A stretch of DNA of 64,000 bases from Patescibacteria group bacterium (GCA_035510735.1 DATKGN010000004.1:92705-156704); one strand, 5' to 3'. Positions 12,566 to 63,260 are shown, counted from the stretch's first letter. The notes: generated by a model not told the origin, from the sequence alone. Numbers and translations are program-made.

Positions 12566-14050
12566 TTATCTCTTTTCCGTGTTTGTCAGCTGCCGGTCGA
12601 TGTCGGTGAGCAGTTGGGCGGGTACGGTATCCGTCCTATACAATTCGGGAACAGCATTTCGCAGACTTCCATTCCCTGAGGGGTCCAGAAGTATGAGGAA
12701 TTTGGCGCCGATATCTGCAGCAATATTGGTACCCCAGATAGTGCCCCCGTGGCTTTCCACCAGTCCCTTCGCGAGAGTCATGCCGATGCCGGAATGGGGC
12801 ATGCCTGCGCGCGCCGAGCCCGAAACCCTGCGTTCGAAAATGAAATTAACGATGTCGAACAACCGTAAATCAAGACTGGTCCAGTCACCTGCAATTTTTT
12901 TCTCCGCATCTGTCAGATGGTCAAAATCTTCCTGCAACAGTTTTTGTTTTGACCGGAGAATCGCTGCAAAATCAAGTCCCGGACCGTTATCGCTCATCCG
13001 TACGGCGATGCAAGGCTCACCGTTAGCTGTGCATCGGGCAGCGGTTATGGCGACTGCCGGCTTGTCCACACGAGTATTCTCATCCTGGAACATGACGACG
13101 GTATTTTTGACGAACTGATAAAACAACAGGTGAAGCCCTGATTCATTCCCCGGGATGGTGAGGTCGGGCGCGATGTGGATGTCGATAGTGAATTCGGAAA
13201 TAGGCGTCTTTTTTGGATCATCAAGGTACGGATTACGGTATGTTACATTTTGGTAGTTGAGCGCACGAGCACGATTATTCCCAAACGCTCTGGCGGCTGC
13301 CTCGTCAGCGACCGTTTGTAGGACCTCGGTGAGATTGGCGTTTCCTTCGGGGAAGTTCCCCTCCGCCATATTGGCATACGCTTCAAACATCCATGATGCG
13401 CCCCGATGAAGCCCTGAAAAAATCCGGACGCCCATGCCGATGTTGCCCGGCTCTATTTGATCACGTTGTCGGCGTTTCGCTTCATTACTTTCCGCGTACA
13501 CTGCCAGATTCATAGCGAAGTTCGAAAATGCAGGAATAGCGTTTACATCATGTCCGAGATTGGCGCACAAATGCGACATGTCGGGATTATCAAGCAGCTG
13601 AAGATTATTATATGGATATGCATCAAAAGATCTGCTGCTTTGTTGGCTAGATCTTGGGTCAAAGAGATCGAGGGATACTGTGACAAGCCCGTCCCTGAGC
13701 TTATCGCGGTCATCAAACCAATTGAGCGTCTGCGTTTCGTTATAGGGAAGCGCAGCTAATTGTTCGGCAGTTAACGATGAGATGCGCTTGAAGACTCCCG
13801 AAACATGCGGTGAAGCTAAGATCTCAACCGCCCGGCGTGATCCGTCAATGATCTGCGTTCTAATGGATTCCCAAAGGAATGCTTCACGGTCGGGGTCTGT
13901 CATTGACGCCAGAATCCCGTCTATTTCCGCTCTCGCTCCGATCATATGTCGCTCCGCATCTGGTTTTTCCCAATACTGGGAGACCAGTCGGTTAAAGTCC
14001 GCGACTGAGTGGTTTTGTTCGGATCCGTCTTTTTGTTCTACATCCATCAT
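12566..14050 (-). CDS. GHKL/HATPase_c-domain protein (atypical soluble histidine-kinase-like ATPase)
   Basis: C-terminal DNGPGL (G1 box) and HSGIGMTLAKGLVESHGG (G2 box). No canonical HisKA H-box or TM segment. Large N-terminal domain of unknown function. Confidence 0.55.
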   Translation of the reverse strand: MMDVEQKDGSEQNHSVADFNRLVSQYWEKPDAERHMIGARAEIDGILASMTDPDREAFLWESIRTQIIDGSRRAVEILASPHVSGVFKRISSLTAEQLAALPYNETQTLNWFDDRDKLRDGLVTVSLDLFDPRSSQQSSRSFDAYPYNNLQLLDNPDMSHLCANLGHDVNAIPAFSNFAMNLAVYAESNEAKRRQRDQIEPGNIGMGVRIFSGLHRGASWMFEAYANMAEGNFPEGNANLTEVLQTVADEAAARAFGNNRARALNYQNVTYRNPYLDDPKKTPISEFTIDIHIAPDLTIPGNESGLHLLFYQFVKNTVVMFQDENTRVDKPAVAITAARCTANGEPCIAVRMSDNGPGLDFAAILRSKQKLLQEDFDHLTDAEKKIAGDWTSLDLRLFDIVNFIFERRVSGSARAGMPHSGIGMTLAKGLVESHGGTIWGTNIAADIGAKFLILLDPSGNGSLRNAVPELYRTDTVPAQLLTDIDRQLTNTEKR

Positions 14051-14159
14051 AAGTTGTCTCCGGTAAACATATCAAAGTATATCGCATTTTCCGGAGTTTT
14101 TCAACTATAGGCTAATTTGTAGCGTATTCCGCCCCGACCTAACGTGGACCCGGCAAGTC

Positions 14160-14220
14160 TTCGTACGCAGACTTGCCTGTCTACCTGTGCAGACAGGCGG
14201 AGGTCAGGGGAGTATACTTC
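14160..14220. repeat. intergenic hairpin + promoter-like module, copy 1 (CCTGTCTACCTGTGCAGACAGG ... GGGGAGTATACT)
   Basis: Inverted repeat cctgtct/agacagg at about 14177-14198 followed by ggggagtatact, 24 nt upstream of the DUF2207 ATG. Near-identical copies at about 19272, 22882 and 24533. Confidence 0.6.
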
Positions 14221-14233
14221 AAATAGCTTCCGT

Positions 14234-15934
14234 ATGAAAAAAGTACTTATTTTTATCCTTGCGCTGTTTTGCCTCGTTTTCCCTCTCGCTTCGCACGCCC
14301 AGGATTCGGAACATATTGAGAAATACGATACGAGCGTTGCTATCCGCAAGGACGGAACGATCCACGTCGCCGAACGTATAGAATATTTTTTCGATTCCCC
14401 GCGGCACGGCATATTCCGGGATATCCCGACCATAAAGACCAATGCTGACGGCAAAAAGTACCGGATGACGATCTCCGGTGAGTCGGTTACCGACGAAACG
14501 AACGGTCCCTACACATTTACCGTAACTCAAAACGGCGATACGGAAGAGTTAAAAATAGGCGATGCCGACCGAACCATAACCGGCACGCACCACTATGTGA
14601 TTACCTATGACGTCGCGGGCGCCCTCACGTATTTCCCTGGTCACGACGAGCTCTACTGGAATGCGGTGGGCACGCAGTGGACGGTGCCCGTGAGTGAAGC
14701 GTCCGTCATTGTGCGCTTACCTCAAGCGGTTGCCCAAAAAGATCTCAATGTCACCTGTTTTGTGGGGGTAGAGGGCGCCACAGGTAAGGATTGCACGGCT
14801 TCTCATACAGATTCCTCCGTAACGGTAACGGCGACCCTCGCACTTACCACGGGTGAAGGCGTGACCGTCGTCGTCGGATTCCCGAAGGGAATGGTTGCCG
14901 TCCTGGAACCAAAAGAGGTTGTCCCGTTTTTTGCGACACTCGCCGGCAAGATTACACTCCTTTTCATTATCATCGTTGCAATCTTCTGGTATATCGCGGC
15001 TCCCGTTCTCGTCATCCGCAAATGGTGGGTGAGCGGCCGGGATCCGAAGCCGGCGATGGGGGAAGCAGCGGCGTGGTTTAGTCCACCGAAGAATCAAAAA
15101 CTTAGAGATCTGACGCCTGCTGAGACCGGGACACTTGTTGATGAATCGGCGGATCTAAGGGACATCTATGCGACGCTTGTCGATTTGGCCCGACGGGGCT
15201 ATATGAAGATCATCGAAACGAAAAAGACCGTGTTTTTTTCAAAAACCACGGGGTATGATTTTCAAAAGCAAAAAGACTGGAAAAATGATCCGGGTGTGCA
15301 GCCCTTTGAAAAAGAACTTCTTGATGCCATTTTTGAAGACGGCGACCGTGTGAGCCTCAAGGATCTCGATCTTCATGACACGTTTGAAAAAGTAAAAACA
15401 GAAGTCTATACGTCGCTTGTCACTGACGGATTTTTCCCGGAGAACCCGCAGAGCGTACGGACGAAGTATTACGTTCTCGCATTTTTTGCACTGTTCACCG
15501 GGAATCTTATTCTCTTTCTTGTCGCCCTCCTGTTTGGTAAAAACATGCCCAGGAAAACGCAAGCGGGGGCGGAAGCGGCAGCAGTCGCCAGGTCACTTAA
15601 GAATTTTCTTGTGAGCCAGAACCGCGAGCTCGCGTTTCAGGCGAAAAACCAGATGATGTTTGAAAAGCTTCTCCCATTCGCCGTTGCCTTCGGGGTTGAG
15701 GAGATCTGGGCCGCCCGGTTTAAAAATCTTGCCCTGAAGCAGCCGAAGTGGTATGTCGCAAGCGGCAATGGGCCGTTTAATGCGGTATTTTTTGCACAAA
15801 GCATCGGGAGGTCGGCAAGCGTTTCGTTTGCGTCATCAGTGATGTCGAAATCCTCAAGCGGTTTTTCCTCAGGATTCTCAGGCGGCGGCTTCTCAGGCGG
15901 CGGCGGAGGCGGGGGCGGCGGGGGAAGCTGGTAG
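14234..15934 (+). CDS. DUF2207-family membrane protein with poly-Gly C-terminal tail
   Basis: Signal/TM N-terminus, beta-rich ectodomain with the HGIFRDIP motif, central TM helices and a GGGFSGGGGGGGGGGSW tail typical of DUF2207. Start at internal ATG 14234. Confidence 0.7.
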   Translation: MKKVLIFILALFCLVFPLASHAQDSEHIEKYDTSVAIRKDGTIHVAERIEYFFDSPRHGIFRDIPTIKTNADGKKYRMTISGESVTDETNGPYTFTVTQNGDTEELKIGDADRTITGTHHYVITYDVAGALTYFPGHDELYWNAVGTQWTVPVSEASVIVRLPQAVAQKDLNVTCFVGVEGATGKDCTASHTDSSVTVTATLALTTGEGVTVVVGFPKGMVAVLEPKEVVPFFATLAGKITLLFIIIVAIFWYIAAPVLVIRKWWVSGRDPKPAMGEAAAWFSPPKNQKLRDLTPAETGTLVDESADLRDIYATLVDLARRGYMKIIETKKTVFFSKTTGYDFQKQKDWKNDPGVQPFEKELLDAIFEDGDRVSLKDLDLHDTFEKVKTEVYTSLVTDGFFPENPQSVRTKYYVLAFFALFTGNLILFLVALLFGKNMPRKTQAGAEAAAVARSLKNFLVSQNRELAFQAKNQMMFEKLLPFAVAFGVEEIWAARFKNLALKQPKWYVASGNGPFNAVFFAQSIGRSASVSFASSVMSKSSSGFSSGFSGGGFSGGGGGGGGGGSW

Positions 15935-16009
15935 GCCGCTCGCCATCACGAACCCGTTCGTTAACGAATTACGTATTTCTCTCCGAACGCTACGAATACC
16001 CTTTTCCTT

Positions 16010-16693
16010 TTACGGGCAGTGGAGCTGCGTTTTGCAGGCGGTTTGCGCGGCGCCTGCAGGCAAACTATTACACGCACTGCATGCGGCATTCGCTGTGCCC
16101 GTGCCGGTTGCTGATGTGCCAGTCGTTGCGGCACCCGGTATCGTGATTGTTGTGAATTTAATATCGGTCGGAAGTGTAAATTGGGACATGTGAGGAGCCC
16201 AATCGGTGCACGAATAGGAAACGGTTTCGTTCATACCGACCCCCTGGTTTGCACCGGGCGTTGTACTTGGTTTTGGTGCATCGGCAAGGGCGATCTTAAA
16301 TCCCATTTTCGTCATACCCGTCCAGACGTAACTGTATCCGGAGTCAACAATCATGTGGGCCGTTATGGTGTTTCCCTGACTCTTTGTAGTAAAGTCCCCG
16401 CTCATTTTTCCCTGCACGGTATATACCGTGCCCGTGGTGTTTCCGTCTTGAGTGGTAAACGTACATGAGACTGGTTTACCGATCGACAAAAGATTTTTCA
16501 GCGTCCCCTGTGTTTGCGCCGCAGTCGCAGTCGTTACCATCGCGGTTGTTCCCGTAGGATTCGCGGTCGGACTTACCTGTGTTAACGTTTCTGGTGCGGG
16601 CGCTTTCATTGATTTACCCAGCATCATATACGCGCCGCCTCCGAGAAGAAGGAGGAGAATTATTACGATAGCAACAACAATTTTTTTATTCAT
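16010..16693 (-). CDS. secreted/anchored Thr-rich hypothetical protein
   Basis: N-terminal TM helix (MNKKIVVAIVIILLLLL) and T-rich linkers. Start at internal ATG. Confidence 0.45.
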   Translation of the reverse strand: MNKKIVVAIVIILLLLLGGGAYMMLGKSMKAPAPETLTQVSPTANPTGTTAMVTTATAAQTQGTLKNLLSIGKPVSCTFTTQDGNTTGTVYTVQGKMSGDFTTKSQGNTITAHMIVDSGYSYVWTGMTKMGFKIALADAPKPSTTPGANQGVGMNETVSYSCTDWAPHMSQFTLPTDIKFTTITIPGAATTGTSATGTGTANAACSACNSLPAGAAQTACKTQLHCP

Positions 16694-16961
16694 ATACCGC
16701 AAAAATAGCACAAGATAAGGATAAATGCAAACCGGGAGCTCATCTTTTTCTATTGTTCTTTAGATATCCCGTAGGGTATATACTGGGAGAGGTAACGCCT
16801 ATGGATCGATCACAGTATCGGATGTATCTGTTTTACTTTTAGACCGCCCGACCGGGCGGTTTTTGATGGTTGCTTAATGATCCGTCAGCTGACGGAGAGT
16901 TTAGAAACCATCAATCCCCATGAGAAAACATGGCGGATTTGTGGAGAGGAGGTGAAACGAA

Positions 16962-17657
16962 ATGAAAAAAATAGGTATAGCACTTTCCTTATGTTCTCTG
17001 GTTTTAGCGGTACTTGCGCTCAATTCTGTTCGGGTGTTTGCCAATGACTGGCAGGATCGCGGACACAGGGATAATGGTAAGCATTTTAACGGCGATTTCA
17101 ATACCGATAAACAATTGACGAGGTCAGCATGCGGCGACAAACTGGGTAAACCGATTATCGACGTGACCGAAAATGTACAGAACGACACTGATTCAGGATT
17201 CGGAGCTAACGTCTATTTCCCAAGCGCCGGAAATTACTGGAACGTCGAGAGCTACACCCGTCATATACAGGTGTGGCCGACCGGGGAAACGTCCTGGTGC
17301 GCCATTGTCCTTTATGATAACGGACACTTTAACGCATTTTATAAACAGACCGGTCCAGCAGGTACGGGAATTATCGGATCGGATGTTGACGGAGAAATGC
17401 ACGGCGGATACCGGGCGACGTTTAACGGTACGCTTCTCTCAACGACGCTGTGGTCAAAAAACGGTTTTGTCGGAACATTTAATTATGATTGCGACATAGC
17501 TGGGAATTGCGGTCCCGGTCGTGTCGACTGGGTAGGGCAATATTTTGGTCCGGGTTATACGGGTTTTGATCAACCGTGGTGGGGTTGGCAATATAAGGCC
17601 GGAGGTCACGGAACATGGGTAAACGCGCTTGAAGGTTCAACAGGAAATATCCTGTAA
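16962..17657 (+). CDS. secreted hypothetical protein (signal peptide)
   Basis: MKKIGIALSLCSLVLAVLALNSVRVFA signal peptide. Gly/aromatic-rich mature region. Confidence 0.45.
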   Translation: MKKIGIALSLCSLVLAVLALNSVRVFANDWQDRGHRDNGKHFNGDFNTDKQLTRSACGDKLGKPIIDVTENVQNDTDSGFGANVYFPSAGNYWNVESYTRHIQVWPTGETSWCAIVLYDNGHFNAFYKQTGPAGTGIIGSDVDGEMHGGYRATFNGTLLSTTLWSKNGFVGTFNYDCDIAGNCGPGRVDWVGQYFGPGYTGFDQPWWGWQYKAGGHGTWVNALEGSTGNIL

Positions 17658-17754
17658 GGATGCGTTTCGTATGTGCCTTAGTACGCGTAGCCTATCGGAA
17701 AAAGTGATAGGCGTGTGGTTGTGTTCTCTCCTCAGGGGTGTATACTACATTACA

Positions 17755-18207
17755 ATGATCGCTTCGGATTTCAGTTTACCGGACCAGGATGGAGTCACCC
17801 ATACTCTCGCTCAATATAAGGGGAAATGGGTTATTCTCTATTTTTACCCAAAAGACGATACGCCGGGATGCACCAAAGAAGCGTGTAATTTCCGCGACTC
17901 GATTGCCGAATATCAAAAATTGGGCGCCATAATTCTTGGCGTGTCCCGCGACAGCGTCAGCTCCCACAAAAAATTTGCCGATAAATATCACCTCAACTTT
18001 CCACTCCTCAGCGACGAAAGTACCAAGATGATACAAGCCTATGAAGCATGGGGAGAGAAGAAATTCATGGGAAAAACATTCACCGGGGTTCTTCGGACCA
18101 CATATCTCATTAATCCTGCGGGAGAAATTCAAAAGGTCTACAAAGACGTCAATCCCCTCGTTCATGCGGGCGAAATCCTCGCAGATCTCAAAAAGTCCGC
18201 AACGTAA
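17755..18207 (+). CDS. bcp: thiol peroxidase Bcp (peroxiredoxin)
   Basis: FSLPDQDG...KWVILYFYPKDDTPGCTKEAC peroxiredoxin active site. Start at internal ATG 17755. Confidence 0.8.
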   Translation: MIASDFSLPDQDGVTHTLAQYKGKWVILYFYPKDDTPGCTKEACNFRDSIAEYQKLGAIILGVSRDSVSSHKKFADKYHLNFPLLSDESTKMIQAYEAWGEKKFMGKTFTGVLRTTYLINPAGEIQKVYKDVNPLVHAGEILADLKKSAT

Positions 18208-18261
18208 TCCGATTGATTGATTATACTGAATCCATAAAGTGTGTTCCGATTAAGTCGGAGG

Positions 18262-18267
18262 TATAAT
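18262..18267 (+). promoter_or_regulatory. putative -10 element (TATAAT) within a GGAGGTATAATTT motif
   Basis: tataat 12 nt upstream of the RhuM-Fic start. Same GGAGTATAAT-type motif as upstream of several island genes. Confidence 0.35.
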
Positions 18268-18278
18268 TTGAGTAACGT

Positions 18279-19244
18279 ATGAAAAATAAATCCATAAAAA
18301 ATGACATCGTTATATATCAGGCTAAATCCGGTGCAATTGAGCTGAAAGGCGATTTTGCAAAAGAAACCATCTGGGCGACGCAGGCTCAGCTTGTTGATAT
18401 TTTTGAAATTGATCAGTCTGTAGCGTCAAGGCATATCAGTAACATATTTAACGATGGCGAGATATCAAAAGAAAGCAATATGCAAAAAATGCATAATGCA
18501 AATTCTGACAAACCAGTAATCTTATATTCACTTGATGTGATATTAGCCGTTGGTTATCGTGCTAATTCAGCACGAGCTATCCGCTTTCGTAAATGGGCGA
18601 CGCAGGTATTGAGAAACCATTTGATTAATGGTTATACGATTAACCGTTCACGCATCGCCAAAAATTACGGTAAATTTCTTAAAGCCGTTGAGCAGATAAA
18701 ACAGTTATTGCCTGAAAGCGGAAATGTGAGCACGGACAGCGCACTGGATCTCGTTTCGCTTTTTGCAAGCACGTGGATATCCCTTGAAGCATATGATACG
18801 TCGGTTTTGCCGGTGGCAGGCGCGACGCAAAAACAGGTTTCACTCACTGCACAGAATCTGGAGTCGGTTTTGAGAGAATTTAAGCATGAGTTGATGAAAC
18901 GGAAACAGGCGAGTGAGTTGTTCGGCCGGGAGCGGCAAGCGGATAGCTTTACGAGCATTGTCGGCAATGTATTTCAGTCATTTGGCGGGCGCGATGTGTA
19001 CCCGAGTGCAGAGGAAAAAGCGGCACATTTGTTGTATTTCGTCGTAAAAGATCATCCGTTTACCGACGGGAACAAACGGAATGGTGCGTTTGTGTTTATC
19101 TGGATTCTTAAGAAAGCGCGCCTCCTGAACGTTGGCCGTCTGACTCCTGAAGCTCTGACAGCGCTTACGTTATTGGTCGCAGAGAGCGATCCGAAAAATA
19201 AAGACAGAGTGATCGGGCTTATTTTGCTGCTTCTGAAAAAATAA
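18279..19244 (+). CDS. RhuM-family N-terminal domain fused to a Fic/Doc domain
   Basis: N-terminus matches the RhuM virulence-family start (IVIYQAKSGAIELKGDFAKETIWATQAQLVDIFE). C-terminal HPFTDGNKRNG Fic/Doc motif. Confidence 0.6.
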   Translation: MKNKSIKNDIVIYQAKSGAIELKGDFAKETIWATQAQLVDIFEIDQSVASRHISNIFNDGEISKESNMQKMHNANSDKPVILYSLDVILAVGYRANSARAIRFRKWATQVLRNHLINGYTINRSRIAKNYGKFLKAVEQIKQLLPESGNVSTDSALDLVSLFASTWISLEAYDTSVLPVAGATQKQVSLTAQNLESVLREFKHELMKRKQASELFGRERQADSFTSIVGNVFQSFGGRDVYPSAEEKAAHLLYFVVKDHPFTDGNKRNGAFVFIWILKKARLLNVGRLTPEALTALTLLVAESDPKNKDRVIGLILLLLKK

Positions 19245-19271
19245 TTAGAGCGCTTCCATTGACGATGGTAA

Positions 19272-19330
19272 ATGTATTTCGAACTAAGCTTGCCTGTCTA
19301 CCTGCGCAGACAGGCGTAGGTAGGGGATTT
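19272..19330. repeat. intergenic hairpin module, copy 2
   Basis: tgtatttcgaactaagcttgcctgtctacctgcgcagacaggcgtaggtagggg. The inverted repeat is identical to copy 1 apart from one loop base. Confidence 0.6.
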
Positions 19331-19426
19331 TGCCTCATTATCTCTAAAACACCGTGAATAGAGCCTATTTTTCACCCAAATTCATGATAAATTGACAAAA
19401 CACCGTGAATATGATAGTATACAGCC

Positions 19427-20317
19427 ATGGCTACTTCACGATTGATCACCGATAGGATACGGATATTAAAAACGCAATATGACCGTATGCGCGCCGGAAA
19501 AGATGCATTACTTGTGCTTATTGATGAAGCGGAGGTAGCGGAAAGCGTCTATAACTCCAACGCAATTGAGAACTCGACGCTCAGTCTCCCTGAAACGGAA
19601 AAAATATTGCTTGAAATGGAAGTTTCCCGGAATATTAGTGTGCGCGAAGTGTACGAAGCAAAAAATTTAGCCCGCGTAAGTGCTTATGTACGGGCATTAT
19701 CGAAAGACCGTGAACTGTCTAAAGAACTTATATGTGCACTTCACGGGATGCTTCTGGTTGGAATAGACGATACCATTGCCGGACGATTCAGGAAGGCAAA
19801 CGAATTTGTTCGCGTAGGCACATTTATCGCGCCAGCGCCTGAACATATAGATTTATTGATGGACCGGATGTTAGAAGAATATACGAGCAATCTGACGACG
19901 TATCCTCTGGATGCGATCGCGAGGTTTCATCTGGAGATTGAAACAATTCATCCGTTTAATGACGGCAACGGTCGTATCGGAAGAGCACTCATTAACCTAC
20001 AACTACAGCGCATCGGATTTCCAAACGTTATTATCCGGGATAAAGAAAAGCAGGAATATTATCGGGGATTTACGACGTACCGTGATGACAAAAAGACGCA
20101 AATCATGGAACGCGTGCTCACAAGAGCGATAATTGAATCACTGCACAAGAGGATTACCTATTTACAGGGAGAAGAAATACTGACGCTCGCGGCCTATGTC
20201 AAAGAGCATGGGTTCGGTGCTCCCACTGTATTTAATAAAGCACGCCGGCAAACAATCCCGGCCTTCCGCGAAAAGGGAGTGTGGAAAATAGGGAAAAATT
20301 ACAATCCTAAATCCTAA
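19427..20317 (+). CDS. Fic family protein (AMPylase/adenylyltransferase-type)
   Basis: Canonical HPFNDGNGRIGR Fic motif. Confidence 0.75.
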   Translation: MATSRLITDRIRILKTQYDRMRAGKDALLVLIDEAEVAESVYNSNAIENSTLSLPETEKILLEMEVSRNISVREVYEAKNLARVSAYVRALSKDRELSKELICALHGMLLVGIDDTIAGRFRKANEFVRVGTFIAPAPEHIDLLMDRMLEEYTSNLTTYPLDAIARFHLEIETIHPFNDGNGRIGRALINLQLQRIGFPNVIIRDKEKQEYYRGFTTYRDDKKTQIMERVLTRAIIESLHKRITYLQGEEILTLAAYVKEHGFGAPTVFNKARRQTIPAFREKGVWKIGKNYNPKS

Positions 20318-20377
20318 ATCTGAAATCTTAAATCCGATATTTATCTTGCCATGAACCATGAACCATGAACGATGAAC
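20303..20377. repeat. two short tandem heptamer arrays (AATCCTA-like x4; CATGAAC x4)
   Basis: aatcctaaatcctaaatctgaaatcttaaatcc straddles the Fic stop. catgaaccatgaaccatgaacgatgaaca lies about 15 nt downstream. Confidence 0.6.
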
Positions 20378-20466
20378 AATTTAATTTTCGAGCATGAGGG
20401 GAATCCTGTGCAGGATATATCCTATAATGTTGTTTTCCTCAGGTTTTTGTGCTATGATCCGGTCTC

Positions 20467-21195
20467 ATGACCATATCGGAAGCAGACAGTTATTTACCGG
20501 AGAGCCGTCAATTACAAGACGTTTTTGAGATTGCTCAAAAGACGCATTTTACTATCGGCACAACGCTTGCGGAGATTCAACGTGCCCCGTTTGAAAAGGT
20601 TTCCCGGGCGACTTCGGATTTCATCACGACATCCGTTGCCTATTTTGCCAACCGCGGTCACTCGGAGCTTGCGCAAACCATCGGAACGTGCGCATGGAGG
20701 ATGATAAACAGGAAAGAAGTATTCCCGATGTATACGGAGAATATTCCCGTTGTCTTACACAACTATTTTGAAATTCCTGTTAACAAAATTCTCACAATGA
20801 CCGCTCCGGGAGAACCGGTATCTTTAATAGGTGTATTTCCGAAGACCGAAATTAATAAAGTTGCAGGCTTTATCATATTTCCGCCCGAGTTTCCGCTCCG
20901 CGTGATGACCAGACCAGTCGAAGCGCTGGCCACTATATCCAGTATGGCGTCGCAAATCACGGATTATTCAAACGGCAGACTGTATATCGACGCTCCGAAT
21001 ATAAAGCTACGAGCACAGGCTTTTGAAGCAGATTTTTTGCTCCACGCCCGTCGGGAAATACCGGATTTGGAATTGTCTCCTGTATTTTCACCGCTTTTAC
21101 AACTTTATCCCAAGGGGATGGAGAGCTTAGTTCCGAAACAACGATACAATCCCAACGATAATCTTCCGCCAATCAGCTTTGTCACTCTTCCATAA
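20467..21195 (+). CDS. hypothetical protein
   Basis: 242-aa ORF with no motif. Coding-like composition. Confidence 0.4.
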   Translation: MTISEADSYLPESRQLQDVFEIAQKTHFTIGTTLAEIQRAPFEKVSRATSDFITTSVAYFANRGHSELAQTIGTCAWRMINRKEVFPMYTENIPVVLHNYFEIPVNKILTMTAPGEPVSLIGVFPKTEINKVAGFIIFPPEFPLRVMTRPVEALATISSMASQITDYSNGRLYIDAPNIKLRAQAFEADFLLHARREIPDLELSPVFSPLLQLYPKGMESLVPKQRYNPNDNLPPISFVTLP

Positions 21196-21237
21196 AAGAA
21201 GATAGGAGTGCGGATTTACCACTTTTGCGCGCGGCGA

Positions 21238-21957
21238 TCACTTCAGCGGTCCGACATCGAGAAGAAGAATTTCGGTGTCACCTGCGGCTTTAAGCGTTAG
21301 CTTCGATTCCTTCGTTATCATCGCCGCCGACAGAACGGGGGCATCTATGCCGTTGACCGCGAGCGGCGCGCCCTCCAATATATATAGATAGTATCCGCGT
21401 TTGGGGTCGAGGGTTTTGGAAACGTGTTTCCCATCAGTCAAAAATAATGAATATACGGCGGCATCGGATTTTATCCTGAGCGCGCCCGCGTCACTATTGG
21501 ATACAAGCGGAAGAAACTTGTCGGTCCGGTCAGTCTTCTCAACTTTTTTCTGCTCGACAGCAGGCTCATGATCGGGCCGGTCCGGCAGAAACCAGAGCTG
21601 AATGAACCGCATGGGCGCGTCCGGTTTATTATTAATTTCCGAGTGCCACATGCCCGTGCCGACCGTCGTGTGCTGGACCCAGCCTTTTTTGAGAATCCCG
21701 CCCAGGCCCCGTTCGTCCTCATGCCGGAATTCGCCCGCCGCCACATACGTGACGACCTCATTGTACCGGTGCGGGTGCAAGGGCCACACGGCGCCGGGAG
21801 ACAGGGTATCGTCGTTACACACCCGAAGACACCCGAACCGTTCAAATTTGGGATCGAAATATTGGTCAAAGGAAAAGTGCCACCGTCCGGCGAACGTGCC
21901 GTTTACTATTTCCCCGTGTGCCTTATATATGCTTTCCGGTTTACGGATGGTAATCAT
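21238..21957 (-). CDS. pirin-like cupin protein
   Basis: N-terminal cupin His pattern (HPHRYNEVVTYV...GE) and overall length typical of the pirin/YhhW family. Confidence 0.7.
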   Translation of the reverse strand: MITIRKPESIYKAHGEIVNGTFAGRWHFSFDQYFDPKFERFGCLRVCNDDTLSPGAVWPLHPHRYNEVVTYVAAGEFRHEDERGLGGILKKGWVQHTTVGTGMWHSEINNKPDAPMRFIQLWFLPDRPDHEPAVEQKKVEKTDRTDKFLPLVSNSDAGALRIKSDAAVYSLFLTDGKHVSKTLDPKRGYYLYILEGAPLAVNGIDAPVLSAAMITKESKLTLKAAGDTEILLLDVGPLK

Positions 21958-22113
21958 ATGAGACTTTAGTTTACCATTTTGTAAGCTATATTACATTTAG
22001 ACAGGGGAAACGTGTGAATCGGGCGTGAGGGGAGTAAAATTAACCCCTTGAGTCTAAGAGTACTGTGAATTACATAACAAAAATTTGAAATACCATACTC
22101 TATAATTTGATGA

Positions 22114-22770
22114 ATGGCGTATATCTTTTTAGATGAGAGTGGAGATTTGGGGTTCAAATCTGACAAAAGGAATTCAACATACTTCATTATTTCTGTTATT
22201 TCCTGTGAAGATAAGAAAAAGTTAGAAAAGGCAGTGAAAAAAGTTCATAGATCCCTTCGGAAAAAAGGTATTCGACTGTCCGCTGGTATACTTCATTGCT
22301 ATAAAGAAAAACCAGCTACGAGAAGAAAAATGTTACGTCTGTTGGCGGAATCAAAGATTTCAATTATGACTATTTGTTTAAACAAAAAGCGTGTCTACAC
22401 AAACTTACAGGAAGAAAAGCACGAACTATATAATTATGTGGTCAATATTCTTCTTGATAGAATAATGACAAAGCAACTTGTTATAAGTTCGGGAAGAATT
22501 TCACTTATTGCGTCTAAACGGGAAACGAATAAGTTCTTGAATGAGAATTTTTCTTCGTATCTTTCGGTTCAGGTTGAACGAAACCATAAAGTAAAGTTAG
22601 AAATACTCGTTCGTACCCCCGCAGCTGAAAAAAGCCTTCAGGCAGCTGATTTTGTCAGCTGGGCGATTTTTAAGAAGTATGAAAAGAACGATGACTCCTA
22701 TTATCGAATAATAAAGGATTTGATTATTGAGGAAAATATGCTTTTTGGCCCAAATACGACAAAACCCTAG
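22114..22770 (+). CDS. DUF3800-family protein (paralog A)
   Basis: N-terminal YIFLDESGD matches the conserved DES motif that defines DUF3800. Confidence 0.55.
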   Translation: MAYIFLDESGDLGFKSDKRNSTYFIISVISCEDKKKLEKAVKKVHRSLRKKGIRLSAGILHCYKEKPATRRKMLRLLAESKISIMTICLNKKRVYTNLQEEKHELYNYVVNILLDRIMTKQLVISSGRISLIASKRETNKFLNENFSSYLSVQVERNHKVKLEILVRTPAAEKSLQAADFVSWAIFKKYEKNDDSYYRIIKDLIIEENMLFGPNTTKP

Positions 22771-22881
22771 ACGCTATTTACGAGGAACCATCCGGAACCC
22801 CACGCCCAGGGAATTACTTGTCACTTACTATTATATCCCAGAAGTCAAAGTTAGCAAAATTAAGAGTTTACACTGGGCCGT

Positions 22882-22945
22882 CGAAGTGAGCGTGAGCCTG
22901 CCCGCCGAAGCCGGTGCTTTGTCTGCGTAGGCAGGGGGAGTATAA
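22882..22945. repeat. intergenic hairpin + promoter-like module, copy 3 (variant stem)
   Basis: gaagtgagcgtgagcctgcccgccgaagccggtgctttgtctgcgtaggcagggggagtataattt. Shares gagcgtgagc, the hairpin and GGGGGAGTATAATTT with copy 4. Confidence 0.55.
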
Positions 22946-22979
22946 TTTGGGAGAATATTAATAGTAATATTTTACTTGT

Positions 22980-23777
22980 ATGGTAGTTACAAAAACGAAG
23001 CTTCCAGTTGTATACATGGATGAAACCGGGAATAAGGAGTCTGATCGATTTTTTGTGGTTGGTTTTCTTAGTGTGAGTGACACAGAACAGCTAAATAGTG
23101 AATTGATGAGAATAAAAGAGCAAATAGAGGCCCTTTCTCGATTTAATAGATTAAAACATGTTCAAATGCTGAAAAGTGAAGGTGATATAGAACAGTTATA
23201 TAATTTTGCCAAATCTGCTGGCACATTTGAGTTGAAGTTTAAACATATCACAGAAGAAAATATTCGGTTTTTTAAAATATTAATAAAAATATTAATTCAT
23301 CGAATTGATTTTCGTTTTGATGCACTCGTTATTGACAGAAAAGATCCAAACTATCGGCATACAGACCTCTCTGACATGTATAAGATAATTACACACTTGT
23401 ACTTTAATCATAGATGTAAAGTAGGTTCTATTTTTGTTCCGGATAGTTTTGATTATCGATGGAATTGGGCATCTATGCTCAATAATCCACAAATAGTCGC
23501 GATTATTCCCAGTTCATCACATGCTTTATTAGCGCTTCAAACAGTTGACATCCTTACGGGGTTAGTGGCCCAAGGGTTAAAAAATAAAGCGGACTATACA
23601 AATAAGGACAAAGTGCGGGCCTCTTTGCTTAAAGTTTTTACTGAAGAAGCAAAGGTATCGATTGAGAAATCAGTTACGGTGAATAAACCAAAATATATAA
23701 GCATTTGGACGATAGACTTTTCAAGAACGAAAAAAGGAGCTCAAAGCATGGACAAAAAATCCAACCTTGGCTCCTAA
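22980..23777 (+). CDS. DUF3800-family protein (paralog B)
   Basis: N-terminal VVYMDETGN (DES-type motif). Similar length and architecture to the upstream paralog. Confidence 0.5.
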   Translation: MVVTKTKLPVVYMDETGNKESDRFFVVGFLSVSDTEQLNSELMRIKEQIEALSRFNRLKHVQMLKSEGDIEQLYNFAKSAGTFELKFKHITEENIRFFKILIKILIHRIDFRFDALVIDRKDPNYRHTDLSDMYKIITHLYFNHRCKVGSIFVPDSFDYRWNWASMLNNPQIVAIIPSSSHALLALQTVDILTGLVAQGLKNKADYTNKDKVRASLLKVFTEEAKVSIEKSVTVNKPKYISIWTIDFSRTKKGAQSMDKKSNLGS

Positions 23778-24089
23778 CAAGCTAATAATAACACGAAGGG
23801 AAGATAATTACAATTTATATATTTCGAGCGAGGGGTCACGTTAGAGCATAGAAGATAGATGTTTCTACCTCGAAGGTGGAAGTAGATAGTAAGGCCAACA
23901 AATTCGATATAAATAAAATAAGCCCCTTATAAGCTAGACGAGTTGCCTCGTGCAAGGCATGAAGCCTACTTTCACGTATAAGGAGCCTAATTACTTAGTT
24001 ACAGTATACCAAGAACTGTTAAGTTAACGCAAATAAGCACAATTTTCGTATTCCGAGTGTGAGGGGAGTATAGTGAGGTCATCTTCATT

Positions 24090-24443
24090 ATGAAATCACA
24101 TCTACAATTTGCCGAAGGGCTGATGCATCTCATGGATAGCAAGTTTAAGCTATTCGGCATCAAATTCGGCATCGACCCGTTTTTGGATTTCATTCCGGGT
24201 CTGGGAAGCCTGATCGGGGCATTCGTATCCTGTTACCTCTTTTGGATAGCCTACAAGTTGCACGTTCCGTCAAAAATTTATTGGCGGATGGGATGGCATA
24301 TATTTCTGGATTTCATACTCGGCGAACTACCGTTTATCGGATTCTTCTTTGACCTCTGGTACAAATCAAATGATATTAACCTCAAACTTCTGTACCCCTT
24401 CGTCGATCCTGAGGTTTTGGAAGGAGTGTTGGTTGAAGGATAG
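24090..24443 (+). CDS. DUF4112-like small membrane protein
   Basis: FGIKFGIDPFLDFIPGLGSLIGAFVS matches the DUF4112 core. Two TM helices. Confidence 0.5.
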   Translation: MKSHLQFAEGLMHLMDSKFKLFGIKFGIDPFLDFIPGLGSLIGAFVSCYLFWIAYKLHVPSKIYWRMGWHIFLDFILGELPFIGFFFDLWYKSNDINLKLLYPFVDPEVLEGVLVEG

Positions 24444-24532
24444 GGAGAGTTTACACTGCCTGCCCGTCTGAAGCCTCATGCGTAGGAGGGAGCTTGCCGA
24501 AGTAGCCTGCACTGAGCGTAGCCGAAGTGAAG

Positions 24533-24598
24533 TGTATTTCGAGCGTGAGCTTGCCTGTCTACCTGTGCAGACAGGCGCAGCCAGGGGGAGTATAATTT
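24533..24598. repeat. intergenic hairpin + promoter-like module, copy 4
   Basis: gtgtatttcgagcgtgagcttgcctgtctacctgtgcagacaggcgcagccagggggagtataatttt. The TATAAT lies about 13 nt before the RadC-like ATG. Confidence 0.6.
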
Positions 24599-24608
24599 TA
24601 ATGTATTT

Positions 24609-25292
24609 ATGCACAAGGATTTATACAAAAACGCCGGTCATAGAAAACGATTAAGAGACAGATTTTTACAATCAGGTTTTGATGGATTCGTAGACTACGA
24701 AATTATTGAACTACTTTTAACTCTTGGCACCCCTAGAAAAGACTGTAAACAGACGGCGAAAAATGCGATTAAAAAGTTTGGAGGGCTATATGGTACACTC
24801 GATGCCTCCCTTGAGGAATTACAAAAAATCAAGGGGATTGGACAATATAACGCATTCGGTTTGAAGTTGTTTCAAGCAATTACTGAGCGTCTTGCAAGAG
24901 AGCAAGTACCAAAAAAAATTACACTAAATTCTTTAAAGTCAGTAGCAAATTATTTACAGATGTCTATTGGTCGAAAAAAGAAAGAGTATTTTGTTATGTT
25001 GTCTATCGATTCACGGAACAATTTAATAAAGGTTAGTAATATTTCAGTTGGTTCGCTTAATGAAAGCGTAGTTCATCCAAGAGAGGTTTTTAAAGAAGCA
25101 ATTCAATCGTCCGCGGCACAGATATTAATCGCACATAATCATCCGTCAGACAATCCTGAAGCATCGCCCGAAGATGTTGCGCTCACACGACGCCTTGTGG
25201 AAGTGGCAAGAATTTTCGATATTCAGTTACTTGATCATATAATCGTAACTAAGAATAATTTTTTTAGTTTAAAAGAACAAAATTTAATTTAA
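24609..25292 (+). CDS. RadC-like JAB/MPN domain protein (UPF0758)
   Basis: HNHPSDNPEASPED JAMM-like motif. Helix-hairpin-helix GIGQYNAFG. Confidence 0.75.
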   Translation: MHKDLYKNAGHRKRLRDRFLQSGFDGFVDYEIIELLLTLGTPRKDCKQTAKNAIKKFGGLYGTLDASLEELQKIKGIGQYNAFGLKLFQAITERLAREQVPKKITLNSLKSVANYLQMSIGRKKKEYFVMLSIDSRNNLIKVSNISVGSLNESVVHPREVFKEAIQSSAAQILIAHNHPSDNPEASPEDVALTRRLVEVARIFDIQLLDHIIVTKNNFFSLKEQNLI

Positions 25293-27494: not shown

Positions 27495-27640
27495 GTCAAA
27501 TGATTTATTAACTCCCCGGCCGTATGCCAGAGGAAATTGAAATTGTTGAGAAAAGCACAAAATAATTATGTATAAATTGTCACCGTCCGACTTCGTCCCA
27601 CATTACATTGGAACGGCGTCCAAGGGAGTAAAATATAAAT

Positions 27641-29504: not shown

Positions 29505-29777
29505 CTATTGTAATTGGACCGTAAGCCGGTAACCCATGACCGATGCGATTTTTTCCAGGAGTCCGAGAGACGGATTCACACTGCCGGATTCAAGGCGGGC
29601 GATAGCTGACTGTTTCGTGCCGATTTTATCCGCGAGTTCTTTTTGAGTAATGCCTTTTTTGAGACGCGCGGCGATAAGACCGGAAATGACCTGGTAACGC
29701 GGCGTGAGTTTTTTGTATTCACGAGCGACGTCCTTATCCTTAAGTAATTCTGTTTTGAATCGGGTAAATGTTTTCAT
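29505..29777 (-). CDS. XRE-family helix-turn-helix transcriptional regulator
   Basis: GITQKELADKIGTKQSAIARLESG HTH_XRE signature. Confidence 0.7.
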   Translation of the reverse strand: MKTFTRFKTELLKDKDVAREYKKLTPRYQVISGLIAARLKKGITQKELADKIGTKQSAIARLESGSVNPSLGLLEKIASVMGYRLTVQLQ

Positions 29778-29906
29778 AGTAAGCGCTTACTCAAATATAA
29801 CATAGATGTTATATCTTTGTCAAGATTTCGATTTATGTTATCTGGTTTACTTTTTTTTGCAGGAATCCCGAAACAATGTTGAAGTAATACGGTATGATAG
29901 AAGCAT

Positions 29907-55793: not shown

Positions 55794-56091
55794 TCCCCTG
55801 TAGCTCAACGGTAGAGCGGCTTCCTGTCACAAGGCAGCGCCAAATAGCAATATTTGGATGAACATCGGGCTAATTCGGGGGACTCCTGCACCGCGTTGGT
55901 TTAGGACAATCCCGAGCTAAATTTCTTTTGCAACGCAAATGGACTCGTCCTGAGCGAGGTCGAAGGATAAATGTGTAGAGACTATATACCCGACTCCCGA
56001 TTTTATCGGGATGATGAGATAGTCCAGTCTTTTTGGTAACAGAAAGCAAACTGTAAGAAGAAGGTTGCAGGTTCGAATCCTGCCGGGGGAG
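55794..56091 (+). tRNA. tRNA-Asn(GUU) interrupted by a group I intron (exons 55794-55827 and 56054-56091)
   Basis: The joined exons give a canonical 72-nt cloverleaf. Acceptor UCCCCUG/CGGGGGA, D-stem GCUC/GAGC, anticodon stem GCUUC/GAAGA, loop CUGUUAA, T-arm GCAGG-UUCGAAU-CCUGC, discriminator G. Very similar to E. coli tRNA-Asn. Confidence 0.7.
55828..56053 (+). ncRNA. group I (self-splicing-type) intron in the tRNA-Asn anticodon loop, ORF-less, about 226 nt
   Basis: 5' exon ends in U and intron ends in G. P1 hairpin cugu/gcag with a U.G at the splice site. P-like aauucggggga. P7 candidate ggacu (55941-45) with aguCC in the S-like element gagauaguCC (56016-25). 55842-55855 aaatagcaatattt resembles the start of the Tetrahymena LSU intron. 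Confidence 0.6.
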
Positions 56092-56118
56092 CAATTTCTA
56101 CGGATTTCTTCGGATTTT
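56086..56118. repeat. 33-bp direct repeat, copy A (overlaps tRNA-Asn 3' end), putative attL-like site
   Basis: ggggagcaatttctacggatttcttcggatttt. Identical copy at 61616-61648. Confidence 0.7.
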
Positions 56119-56143
56119 ATTACCCTCTGATATACTGCTATTA

Positions 56144-58677: not shown

Positions 58678-58801
58678 GTTATTTTTAATCGCCTAATTAG
58701 TATAATAAATAGTCCGAACATCCTCTACCGCTTGGAGCATTTTAATTTTGGAGCATATTGATGCCCCAATTCTTATTACAGTTTACTTCCAAAGGCGATT
58801 A

Positions 58802-59662: not shown

Positions 59663-59833
59663 TCAGAAATTTAAGATTAAATAGTTTCGAACATCGTCTA
59701 CTGCTCGGAGCAAAAGTTGATTATCGGCGTAATTTAGTATTGTATCAAAGGGTTTTATAGCTTCATAGTGCACCGTTTCACCATCTACCTTAAGGTTCTG
59801 AAGTACAAGTTTAACTAACTGACGTTTTTTCAT
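59663..59833 (-). CDS. small ORF (56 aa), hypothetical. An upstream in-frame start-less remnant suggests a decayed gene
   Basis: ATG preceded by AAGGTG. Translation MKKRQLVKLVLQNLKVDGETVHYEAIKPFDTILNYADNQLLLRAVDDVRNYLILNF. Not in the supplied ORF track (<60 aa). Confidence 0.2.
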   Translation of the reverse strand: MKKRQLVKLVLQNLKVDGETVHYEAIKPFDTILNYADNQLLLRAVDDVRNYLILNF

Positions 59834-61615: not shown

Positions 61616-61648
61616 GGGGAGCAATTTCTACGGATTTCTTCGGATTTT
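61616..61648. repeat. 33-bp direct repeat, copy B (putative attR-like site)
   Basis: Identical to 56086-56118. Lies at the far edge of the AT-rich 5.5-kb segment. Confidence 0.7.
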
Positions 61649-61671
61649 CTTGCTTCTGTTATAATTTCTCC

Positions 61672-63201: not shown

Positions 63202-63260
63202 TTAGATTATACAGTAATAGGTCCGAACATCCTCTACAGTTTGGAGCGCATTGGACTAAA

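Follow-up and report, generated by a model that had tools for sequence, protein, structure and literature searches.

A probable 36-nt palindromic insertion element of candidate phyla radiation bacteria, lying in a promoter-like module of an accessory island

In the 64,000-nucleotide stretch of Patescibacteria DNA analysed here (the window), a short GC-rich hairpin recurs between positions 14,160 and 24,598, in the neighbourhood of unrelated accessory genes. The question raised by this locus is whether the hairpin is a regulatory signal that these genes share or a piece of DNA that has moved among them. An earlier note on the same sequence had proposed either a common operator/promoter cassette or an element resembling a miniature inverted-repeat transposable element (MITE) that supplies promoters. 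Our analysis favours, with a probability of about 0.7, a 36-nt GC-rich palindromic non-coding insertion element found in several lineages of the candidate phyla radiation (CPR), which here sits in a separate, older and island-specific promoter-like module. Judged from its distribution and from three filled/empty comparisons, the element is mobile or horizontally spread DNA; it is similar to the repetitive extragenic palindromes (REP) and to the Rickettsia palindromic elements (RPE), but it belongs to neither family.

The canonical core, GCCTGTCTACCTG(T/C)GCAGACAGGCG, occurs three times on the + strand (14175-14199, 19292-19316, and 24553-24577, with 0, 1, and 0 mismatches, respectively) and had 0 matches in 100 dinucleotide-preserving shuffles. 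The full unit is palindromic, has 36-37 nt and reads C(C/T)TGCCTGTCTACCTG(C/T)GCAGACAGGCG.AG..AGG. Its ends form an imperfect inverted pair (CCTGCCTG.../...CAGGCAGG), and the hairpin consists of an 8-nt loop and a stem of 8 bp (GCCTGTCT/AGACAGGC), of which only 7 had been counted before. A repeat finder stretched the window copies to 53 nt, at 74-85% identity. A covariance model was built from 9 non-redundant instances of the element and both strands of the 64-kb window were searched with filters off; the three copies obtained 48-59 bits (E 1e-11 to 1e-14) and no further significant copy was detected on either strand. An ungapped weight-matrix scan of the window added no copies either, and none was present in the 8.6 kb past the window end (L020), which were searched with a regular expression for the core and the module words described below and with the covariance model at default filters. 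The three canonical copies in 72.6 kb are thus all located inside 10.4 kb. Four near-identical copies had been reported; this holds for the sites at 14160, 19272, and 24533, while the one at 22882-22945 has only ends and flanks in common with them. The centre of this variant is different and forms a small hairpin of its own (CGCCG-AAGC-CGGTG), and its score against the covariance model was 9.9 bits (E = 1.5), its kinship resting on the common ends and on its position. The consensus 36-mer folds at −21 kcal/mol (z = −3.1), with an alternative fold of 9+4 bp, and the folds of the window copies were not clearly better than those of shuffles (z −1.6 to −2.2). No Rfam family was found for the hairpin or the module in the whole window at gathering thresholds, nor anything relevant at E ≤ 10 in 13900-24800.

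The distribution of the element in other genomes was examined by an exact scan of CCTGTCTACCTGNGCAGACAGG, in which 21 of 22 nt are specified, against 185,579 genomes, one per species (596 Gb). Seven loci were obtained, when by our own arithmetic ~0.3 matches are expected by chance, and six of them belong to metagenome-assembled genomes (MAGs) of the CPR: WWE3, Woesebacteria, Gottesmanbacteria, a Microgenomates bacterium, a Patescibacteria bacterium, and an unclassified MAG, "DTUPAT2". A match in Streptomyces (L002) had only the stem in common and was treated as chance. Scanning of metagenomes returned the same CPR loci, the window's own sequence and two new loci. The unit conserved across genomes is the 36-mer CCTGCCTGTCTACCTGCGCAGACAGGCGCAGGCAGG, shortened to a 26-nt core in two copies; one exact-core copy was detected per representative genome, and L007 and L012 carry it as an inverted doublet. 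Considering that stem and loop are equally invariant, with zero compensatory changes or covariation among the copies, we conclude that what is conserved is the sequence itself and not the structure alone, as would be expected from a recent spread or from recognition of the sequence. The 36-mer is located 5' of genes in the window, L006, L008, and L011, and 3' of genes or between convergent genes in L001 and L007, and it is also found inside genes. Its orientation relative to the neighbouring genes also varies among loci; for example, an RNase Y gene is preceded, at 8 nt, by a copy in the opposite orientation. Such variation in context and orientation is in keeping with a selfish insertion rather than with a cis-regulatory site that is conserved.

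Two minor observations belong to these scans. At ~5985-6010 of L001, just upstream of the full 36-mer, the sequence CGCCTGGCTACGCAGTCAGG is like an element copy minus 14 internal nt. In viral contigs the 3'-half and module patterns gave chance matches only, and the degenerate core pattern was matched by two phage contigs alone, whose hairpins have the form (CCTG)n/(CAGG)n. These contigs, which contain terminase and portal genes, have ~8 (L016, 761-11728; GC 53%) and ~3 (L015, 1127-3685; GC 64%) hairpins made of CCTG(C/T)CTG / CAG(G/A)CAGG words, some of which overlap long open reading frames (ORFs); they may be relatives of the element or low-complexity palindromes that resemble it.

The comparison of filled and empty sites showed a precise insertion. 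At the WWE3 locus L013 the gene for DinB (DNA polymerase IV) contains the 36-mer in frame, close to its 3' end. The protein, P0121, has 12 additional residues, GLPVYLRRQAQS, ahead of the conserved GKISSFLRH and reads ...DQTKGLPVYLRRQAQSGKISSFLRH, whereas 10 out of 10 aligned orthologues, including the 87%-identical P0122, do not have the 12 residues and read ...DQTKGKISSFLRH. When the DNA of P0121 was aligned with the contig of this 87% orthologue, a single 36-nt gap was observed, with no duplication of the flanks, and 5 assemblies carry the filled allele intact. At L014 there is an intact tRNA-Leu(tag), GGGCGAGTGGCGGAATTGGCATACGCGTACGG..., which reads GGCATACGCGTACGG at the junction; ~340 nt upstream a duplicated 5' fragment of it was found as GGGCGAGTGGCGGAATTGGCATA-36-mer-CGCGTACGG (...GGCATA before the 36-mer), followed by a small GIY-YIG gene. 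The third case is that of the paralogous filled and empty modules within the window, also without duplication. The element of L004 lies within an ORF for a PMT-like membrane glycosyltransferase, which continues through it (...NKIHN SCLSTCADRRRQ AKFIILNS...), and a weak Pfam match covers both sides of it; the protein was not alignable with the glycosyltransferase of L012, and this comparison did not confirm the in-frame insertion. The 36-mer of L004 (913-976) is flanked by a 13-nt direct repeat, AAATTCATAATTC, and the total insert of 51 nt preserves the frame. Altogether, no target-site duplication was present in 3 of the 4 testable cases. Read from the sequence, 5 of the 6 frames of the 36-mer are open; in-frame copies would survive because 36 nt make up 12 codons and these five frames are open.

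With regard to the GIY-YIG gene of L014, it encodes a small nuclease (482-905, − strand) and stands beside tRNA-Leu(tag), the first 32 nt of which are duplicated. It was inserted there first, and the 36-mer then entered the old 5' fragment of the tRNA; the whole may represent a tRNA-targeting GIY-YIG cassette in CPR. A constant linkage between the hairpin and GIY-YIG was rejected, the gene being found at L014 only.

The module that holds the element in the window, TTCGAGYGTGAG/GGGAGTAWAAT, has ~9 occurrences upstream of + strand accessory genes, the element being present or absent at the position of the slash. All copies sit within the low-GC island, at 14-29 kb. Without its block of 36-39 nt, each of the four filled sites can be aligned without a break to five sites that have no hairpin, with the consensus TTCGAGCGTGAG/GGGAGTATAAT; at the junction three of the filled modules have the canonical element and one has the variant with the same ends. 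The clearest pair is only 500 nt apart, the empty module at 24047-24074 (GTATTCCGAGTGTGAG/GGGAGTATAGT) and the filled one at 24533-24596 (GTATTTCGAGCGTGAG, 36 nt, GGGAGTATAAT). Their flanks are identical at 14/16 and 10/11 positions and there are zero duplicated bases. Taking into account that the module also exists without the hairpin (at 22021-22040, 24055-24074, 27616-27634, and 20390-20428), the element is not the source of TATAAT, and the word is assigned to the older island-specific module and not to the mobile unit. Thus, of the MITE-like, promoter-supplying element that had been proposed, the discrete 36-nt insertion stands (three filled/empty comparisons, several CPR lineages) and the supply of the TATAAT does not.

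The words around the hairpin were also revised. It had been described as followed by GGGGAGTATAAT, which was seen directly after the element only at the 24550 copy and the 22897 variant. After the copy at 14172 comes GGAGTATACT, with TATACT, and after the one at 19289 comes GGATTTTGCC; the latter site (19272) reads GGGGATTTTGCC in place of GGGGAGTATAAT, which resembles a 7-nt loss. There are 6 words like AGGGGAGTATA, all on the + strand, versus 0.57 expected, and the related motifs announced near 22020 and 24060 were recovered as exact GTGAGGGGAGTA at 22025 and 24059. The proposed flanking word GCCGAAG is not enriched (13 versus 7.4 expected, equalled by 6/100 shuffles), and no enrichment was obtained for GCCGAAG and GAGYGTGAG allowing one mismatch; the cgccgaagc motif at ~9380 falls inside an ORF. 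The spacers 22771-22979 and 24444-24608 have their first 13 nt (AGAGTTTACACTG) and last 17 nt in common, and between these ends both hold apparent, weakly matching decayed pieces of the palindromic family (covariance model E ~5). A tRNA origin of the element flanks was dropped, since the common part was only the 9-mer GCCGAAGTG.

A key aspect is the relationship that may exist between the module and transcription. In the 65 window genes, hexamers with a match of ≥5/6 to TATAAT cluster just upstream of start codons: they end 6-11 nt before the start in 19/65 genes and 0-17 nt before it in 33/65, many of them with the extended −10 motif TGn. Because these −10-like hexamers are so close to the start codons, this Gottesmanbacteria-like genome appears to have mostly leaderless or very short-leader mRNAs. 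When the module was tested against the sigma-70 pattern, TATAAT, TATAGT, TAAAAT, or TATACT was located 6-15 nt before four start codons, matching the genome-wide peak, and this makes the promoter reading of TATAAT given in the earlier note a plausible one; the TAWAAT of the module is most likely the −10 box of predicted short-leader or leaderless promoters. The only −35 candidates were CAGACA and TTGTCT, each 4/6 with respect to TTGACA. CAGACA comes from the right arm of the element and is at the canonical spacing, 17 nt upstream of the −10 at 24568-24596 (CAGACA 24568-24573) and at 14190-14218, and the TTGTCT of the variant is 16 nt upstream (22919-22946). Unlike many core promoters of this genome, the module has no TGn, and its empty form is without a convincing −35. 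The element would occupy ~−12 to −47 of the predicted promoter, and it may modulate such promoters by means of a weak −35-like hexamer, without creating them. The first DUF3800 gene has an additional proximal TATAAT, 7 nt before its start codon, and the Fic gene downstream of the copy at 19289 has its own promoter sequence, TTGACA-17-TAGTAT, 6 nt before the ATG. The coordinates of the element copies and modules are given in Table 1.

Table 1. Element copies, module parts and associated −10-like boxes in the window
Feature	Position	Strand	Sequence and score	Box and context
Element copy 1	14172-14208	+	37 nt, extra base in 3' tail; 48.2 bits, E 1.3e-11	Between divergent HATPase_c gene (12566-14050, −) and DUF2207 gene (14234-15934, +)
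Module right half	14209-14218	+	GGAG + TATACT	TATACT 14213-14218, 15 nt before DUF2207 start codon 14234
Element copy 2	19289-19324	+	36 nt; 59 bits, E 9.8e-15	45 nt past RhuM/Fic gene stop, 102 nt ahead of Fic gene; TATAAT missing
Diverged module	20390-20428	+	GAGCATGAG/GGGA, then small hairpin ATCCTGTGCAGGAT, then TATAAT	TATAAT 20423-20428
Empty module	22013-22040	+	GAATCGGGCGTGAG/GGGAGTAAAAT	Upstream of first DUF3800 gene
13-mer	22863-22875 and 24446-24458	+	AGAGTTTACACTG	Marks start of two homologous spacers
Variant element	22897-22935	+	39 nt; ends CCTGCC...GCGTAGGCAGG as canonical, centre different	Same module junction
Module right half	22936-22946	+	GGGAG + TATAAT	TATAAT 22941-22946, upstream of second DUF3800 gene
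Empty module	24047-24074	+	GTATTCCGAGTGTGAG/GGGAGTATAGT	TATAGT 24069-24074, 15 nt before DUF4112 start codon 24090
Possible decayed element copy	24459-24490	+	CCTGCCCGTCTGAAGCCTCATGCGTAGGAGGG; 8.1 bits, E 5, weak	Same spacer as copy 3
Module left half, filled	24533-24549	+	GTATTTCGAGCGTGAG	
Element copy 3	24550-24585	+	36 nt; 57.7 bits, E 2.3e-14; identical in independent assemblies	Between GAGCGTGAG and GGGAGTATAAT, upstream of RadC-MazG-helicase operon
Module right half	24586-24596	+	GGGAG + TATAAT	TATAAT 24591-24596, 12 nt before RadC start codon (ATG) 24609
Empty module, more diverged	27616-27634	+	GCGTCCAAG/GGAGTAAAAT	TAAAAT 27629-27634, 6 nt before PD-(D/E)XK start codon 27641

By comparison with known systems, the element is most readily set beside the REP sequences of Proteobacteria, their doublets (REPIN) and the associated tyrosine transposases (RAYT). 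It agrees with them in being a GC-rich imperfect palindrome (20-40 nt in REP, 36 nt here), mostly intergenic and without target-site duplication, at times in adjacent inverted doublets (L007/L012) and clustered with decayed copies in the same spacers. It differs in its 1-3 copies versus hundreds, in not being strictly extragenic (it is in frame in DinB and within the PMT-like ORF), in having no evident flanking GTAG head, with CTAC only in the loop, and in being nearly unchanged between classes, REP families being species-specific. No RAYT (Y1_Tnp) was found near the DinB copy or among the scanned ORFs of the window, several at 40.8-49 kb not having been scanned. The RPE are selfish palindromic insertions tolerated in frame in conserved protein genes (PMC10969869). 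Here too a palindromic insertion is found in small AT-rich genomes of host-dependent bacteria and is tolerated in frame (DinB, L004), but the RPE have ~100-150 nt and dozens of copies, encode a conserved peptide where they are intragenic and are confined to Rickettsia, whereas the element has 36 nt and very few copies across CPR lineages. The Correia element of Neisseria is a small non-autonomous repeat located just upstream of genes, to which it can contribute promoter hexamers (PMC10969869). The CAGACA placed 17 nt from TATAAT is reminiscent of it; however, Correia elements are ~100-150 bp long, with terminal inverted repeats, TA duplication and complete strong promoters, and here the −10 is outside the element and the −35-like hexamer is 4/6. 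MITEs have ~50-500 bp and derive from a parent insertion sequence (IS), whereas the element has 36 nt and no parent was found; it does have inverted ends, but the three filled/empty pairs are without duplication and only L004 shows the 13-nt repeat. The GC clusters of fungal mitochondria are short (30-50 nt) GC-rich palindromic mobile insertions of AT-rich reduced genomes, occasionally intragenic, some reported with short AT-rich target duplications; hosts and sequences differ and no relationship is implied. In the literature that was searched for extragenic palindromes or MITEs in CPR/Patescibacteria nothing relevant was found, nor any description of the element.

As to how the element reached its present places in the window, the simplest history is that an already filled module was duplicated, which would account for most of the three copies better than three separate insertions. 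This is suggested because the flanks are diverged yet homologous, as in the left flanks GTATTTCGAACTAAG and GTATTTCGAGCGTGAG, and because the copies have in common the derived 5' end CTTGCC, which in most other genomes is CCTGCC. The best guess for the mobilisation is that a single-strand HUH/Y1 enzyme (of the IS200-IS605 or RAYT type) would act in trans by recognising the hairpin. Hairpin recognition without target duplication is a hallmark of the single-strand HUH/Y1 systems (IS200/IS605, REP-RAYT), and this route was ranked first because these systems act on hairpins and leave no duplication; the missing fixed target motif, the very few copies and the failure to find a Y1 gene in the DNA analysed weaken it. 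The main alternative is the capture of the 36-mer, in the course of break repair, from a shared mobile parent, or its origin as an excision footprint. A more ambitious reading is that this is an undescribed minimal mobile DNA of the CPR, a bare hairpin that moves between classes, inserts precisely and without duplication even in frame (DinB), is moved by a single-strand DNA enzyme, possibly borne by a phage or the host, and was co-opted here into the −35/spacer region of accessory promoters; we put it forward as a tentative idea, with the balance of probability against it.

Several observations weigh against an insertion element. The 13-nt repeat that flanks the copy of L004 is the sole exception to the lack of duplication. 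No target consensus is visible at the insertion sites, and IS200/IS605 elements insert beside a fixed tetra- or pentanucleotide. There are very few copies (one exact match per representative genome, three in ~72 kb), unlike what is seen with proliferating REPs or MITEs. Neither transposase nor integrase nor Y1 gene appeared among the window ORFs scanned with Pfam/NCBIfam, several ORFs at 40.8-49 kb having been left out of that scan, and no transposase/Y1 gene was found around the DinB copy. An exact-protein look-up of DUF4112, Fic, MazG, DUF3800, and APH gave ~25 contigs from many samples that are 99.9-100% identical to the window, and no empty allele was seen at the three window sites; the same look-up for HsdR had no match on record. 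Finally, apart from one difference in the loop, the window copies have the same core, but divergence is seen in their 3' tails (GCGGAGGTCAGG, GCGTAGGTAGG, GCGCAGCCAGG) and flanks; this could be due to selection acting on the core, to gene conversion or to replacement that occurred repeatedly.

This last observation is also an argument for the hairpin being a selected operator or promoter cassette bound by one regulator, with the island genes as its regulon. The 25-nt core has been kept while the flanks diverged to ~70%, which makes purifying selection possible, the three copies have the same orientation, each with a −10-like box or a gene directly behind it, and there is dyad symmetry with an 8-nt spacer. 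Yet in other CPR genomes the same 36-mer is found in either orientation and 5', 3' or inside genes, namely in DinB, in the glycosyltransferase ORF, in a pseudo-tRNA fragment, 3' of genes and reversed before RNase Y; its loop is as invariant as its stem, with no covariation. At least four modules persist without the hairpin, copy 2 has lost the TATAAT and Fic uses its own promoter, and the XRE regulator that had been named as a candidate has promoter palindromes that differ from the hairpin and are unrelated to it. The earlier note itself held that a module found inside genes would speak against the cassette, and the hairpin part is inside genes in DinB and the PMT-like ORF. The operator is consequently regarded as unlikely. 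We consider doubtful that the 36-mer is repair filler from a common mobile parent (a phage, a plasmid or an abundant small DNA or RNA of CPR communities) or the excision footprint of a larger element. The lack of both target-site duplication and target consensus, the very few copies with a sequence nearly identical across classes, the inverted-end layout of the sequence (CCTGCCTG.../...CAGGCAGG) and the L014 copy, 9 nt from the insertion point of the GIY-YIG endonuclease cassette, agree with it; but no parent with both halves was found, the viral-contig scans giving look-alikes or chance matches, and boundaries that coincide within 1-2 nt across independent events, with a length of 36 nt (37 in copy 1), are too regular for typical filler.

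The other two explanations concern the hairpin as RNA and as a recombination site. A terminator or insulator of the upstream gene, or a stabilising stem-loop of an untranslated region, would agree with the stable GC-rich 8-bp stem and the fold of the consensus 36-mer (−21 kcal/mol, z = −3.1), and with copies 2 and 3 being 45 and 107 nt behind co-directional genes; REP elements are able to stabilise the upstream mRNA. However, there is no T-run after any copy and the terminator scan reported none of them; the earlier note had also judged a terminator unlikely. Intrinsic terminators differ from the element in this respect. Copy 1 is without a co-directional upstream gene, the folds of the window copies do not clearly surpass shuffles (z −1.6 to −2.2), no compensatory changes occur and, if TATAAT is a promoter, the hairpin is outside the downstream mRNA; a role in RNA is thus very unlikely. 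As for attC-, lox- or dif-like sites that would bound successively captured gene cassettes, it is suggestive that unrelated accessory genes in one orientation stand each behind the same module, that two spacers have a common start and end, and that inverted arms surround an 8-nt asymmetric spacer. Nevertheless, the attC of integrons has 57-141 nt with R''/R' cores (RYYYAAC...GTTRRRY) and is accompanied by intI, while here 36 nt is below any attC length, there are no such cores at the window sites, and no recombinase domain, tyrosine or serine, was detected among the scanned window ORFs (with the same exception of several at 40.8-49 kb); elsewhere the 36-mer is a solitary insertion within conserved genes. 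The attC, dif/lox, and CRISPR-repeat readings were rejected on anatomy, and capture of cassettes through these modules is regarded as extremely improbable.

Mobile DNA is poorly charted in CPR/Patescibacteria. With its near identity in WWE3, Woesebacteria, and Gottesmanbacteria, such a 36-nt element would serve as a compact marker of DNA exchange among episymbionts, and its entry into genes without target duplication poses the mechanistic question of which enzyme moves a bare hairpin. For annotation, small in-frame inserts of the LPVYLRRQAQ type in CPR proteins can be selfish DNA, and identical intergenic hairpins need not be regulatory. For the island, directly testable predictions of transcription starts follow from the leaderless geometry and from the promoter-like module, which can be separated from the element.

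The window encodes DnaG and RpoD. The best named relatives of its DnaG are from Candidatus Gottesmanbacteria (~62% identity), with metagenomic proteins reaching 93%, and by these sequence relationships the genome is assigned to a Gottesmanbacteria-like member of the CPR/Patescibacteria. The GC content is 45-49% in the core, 35-42% at 1-12 kb, 51% and 46% at 12-20 kb and 38-42% at 20-28 kb. The low-GC genes comprise a type I restriction subunit, Fic/RhuM, the two DUF3800 genes, the operon of RadC, MazG and a Schlafen-like helicase, and PD-(D/E)XK. The segment 1-12000 (35-42% GC) contains the type I restriction R subunit, a YgjP-like peptidase, DUF2779, and a deaminase; considering these defence and accessory genes, the accessory region exceeds the 14-25 kb that had been flagged. 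The XRE gene (29505-29777, − strand) is preceded at 29778-29823 by the palindromes AGTAAGCGCTTACT and ATAACAT-AG-ATGTTAT, which overlap a TTGACA-18-TATATT promoter; this has the typical layout of a predicted autoregulation, unrelated to the hairpin.

Further downstream, a group I intron (Rfam RF00028, 55813-56046, 74 bits) interrupts a tRNA gene (55797-56093, + strand) that has the anticodon loop CTGTCAC (Asp GUC) and whose 3' exon ends in ...GGTTCGAATCCTGCCGGGGGAGCA; ARAGORN reported zero tRNAs across the window. A 36-nt direct repeat, 97% identical, begins in the last 8 nt of this tRNA (56086-56121) and is repeated at 61616-61651. The block of 5.5 kb bracketed by it (38-39% GC) encodes an ABC exporter, a DUF347 protein, and a GDSL-like protein, with no integrase seen, and it has the appearance of an island that entered at the tRNA 3' end. 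It was also possible to see a second intergenic repeat (…GTCCGAACATCCTCTAC.G.TTGGAGC) at 58701-58738, 59674-59711, and 63210-63247, which adjoins the TATAAT boxes of neighbouring − strand genes. It is not related to the hairpin and may represent an operator or a promoter motif.

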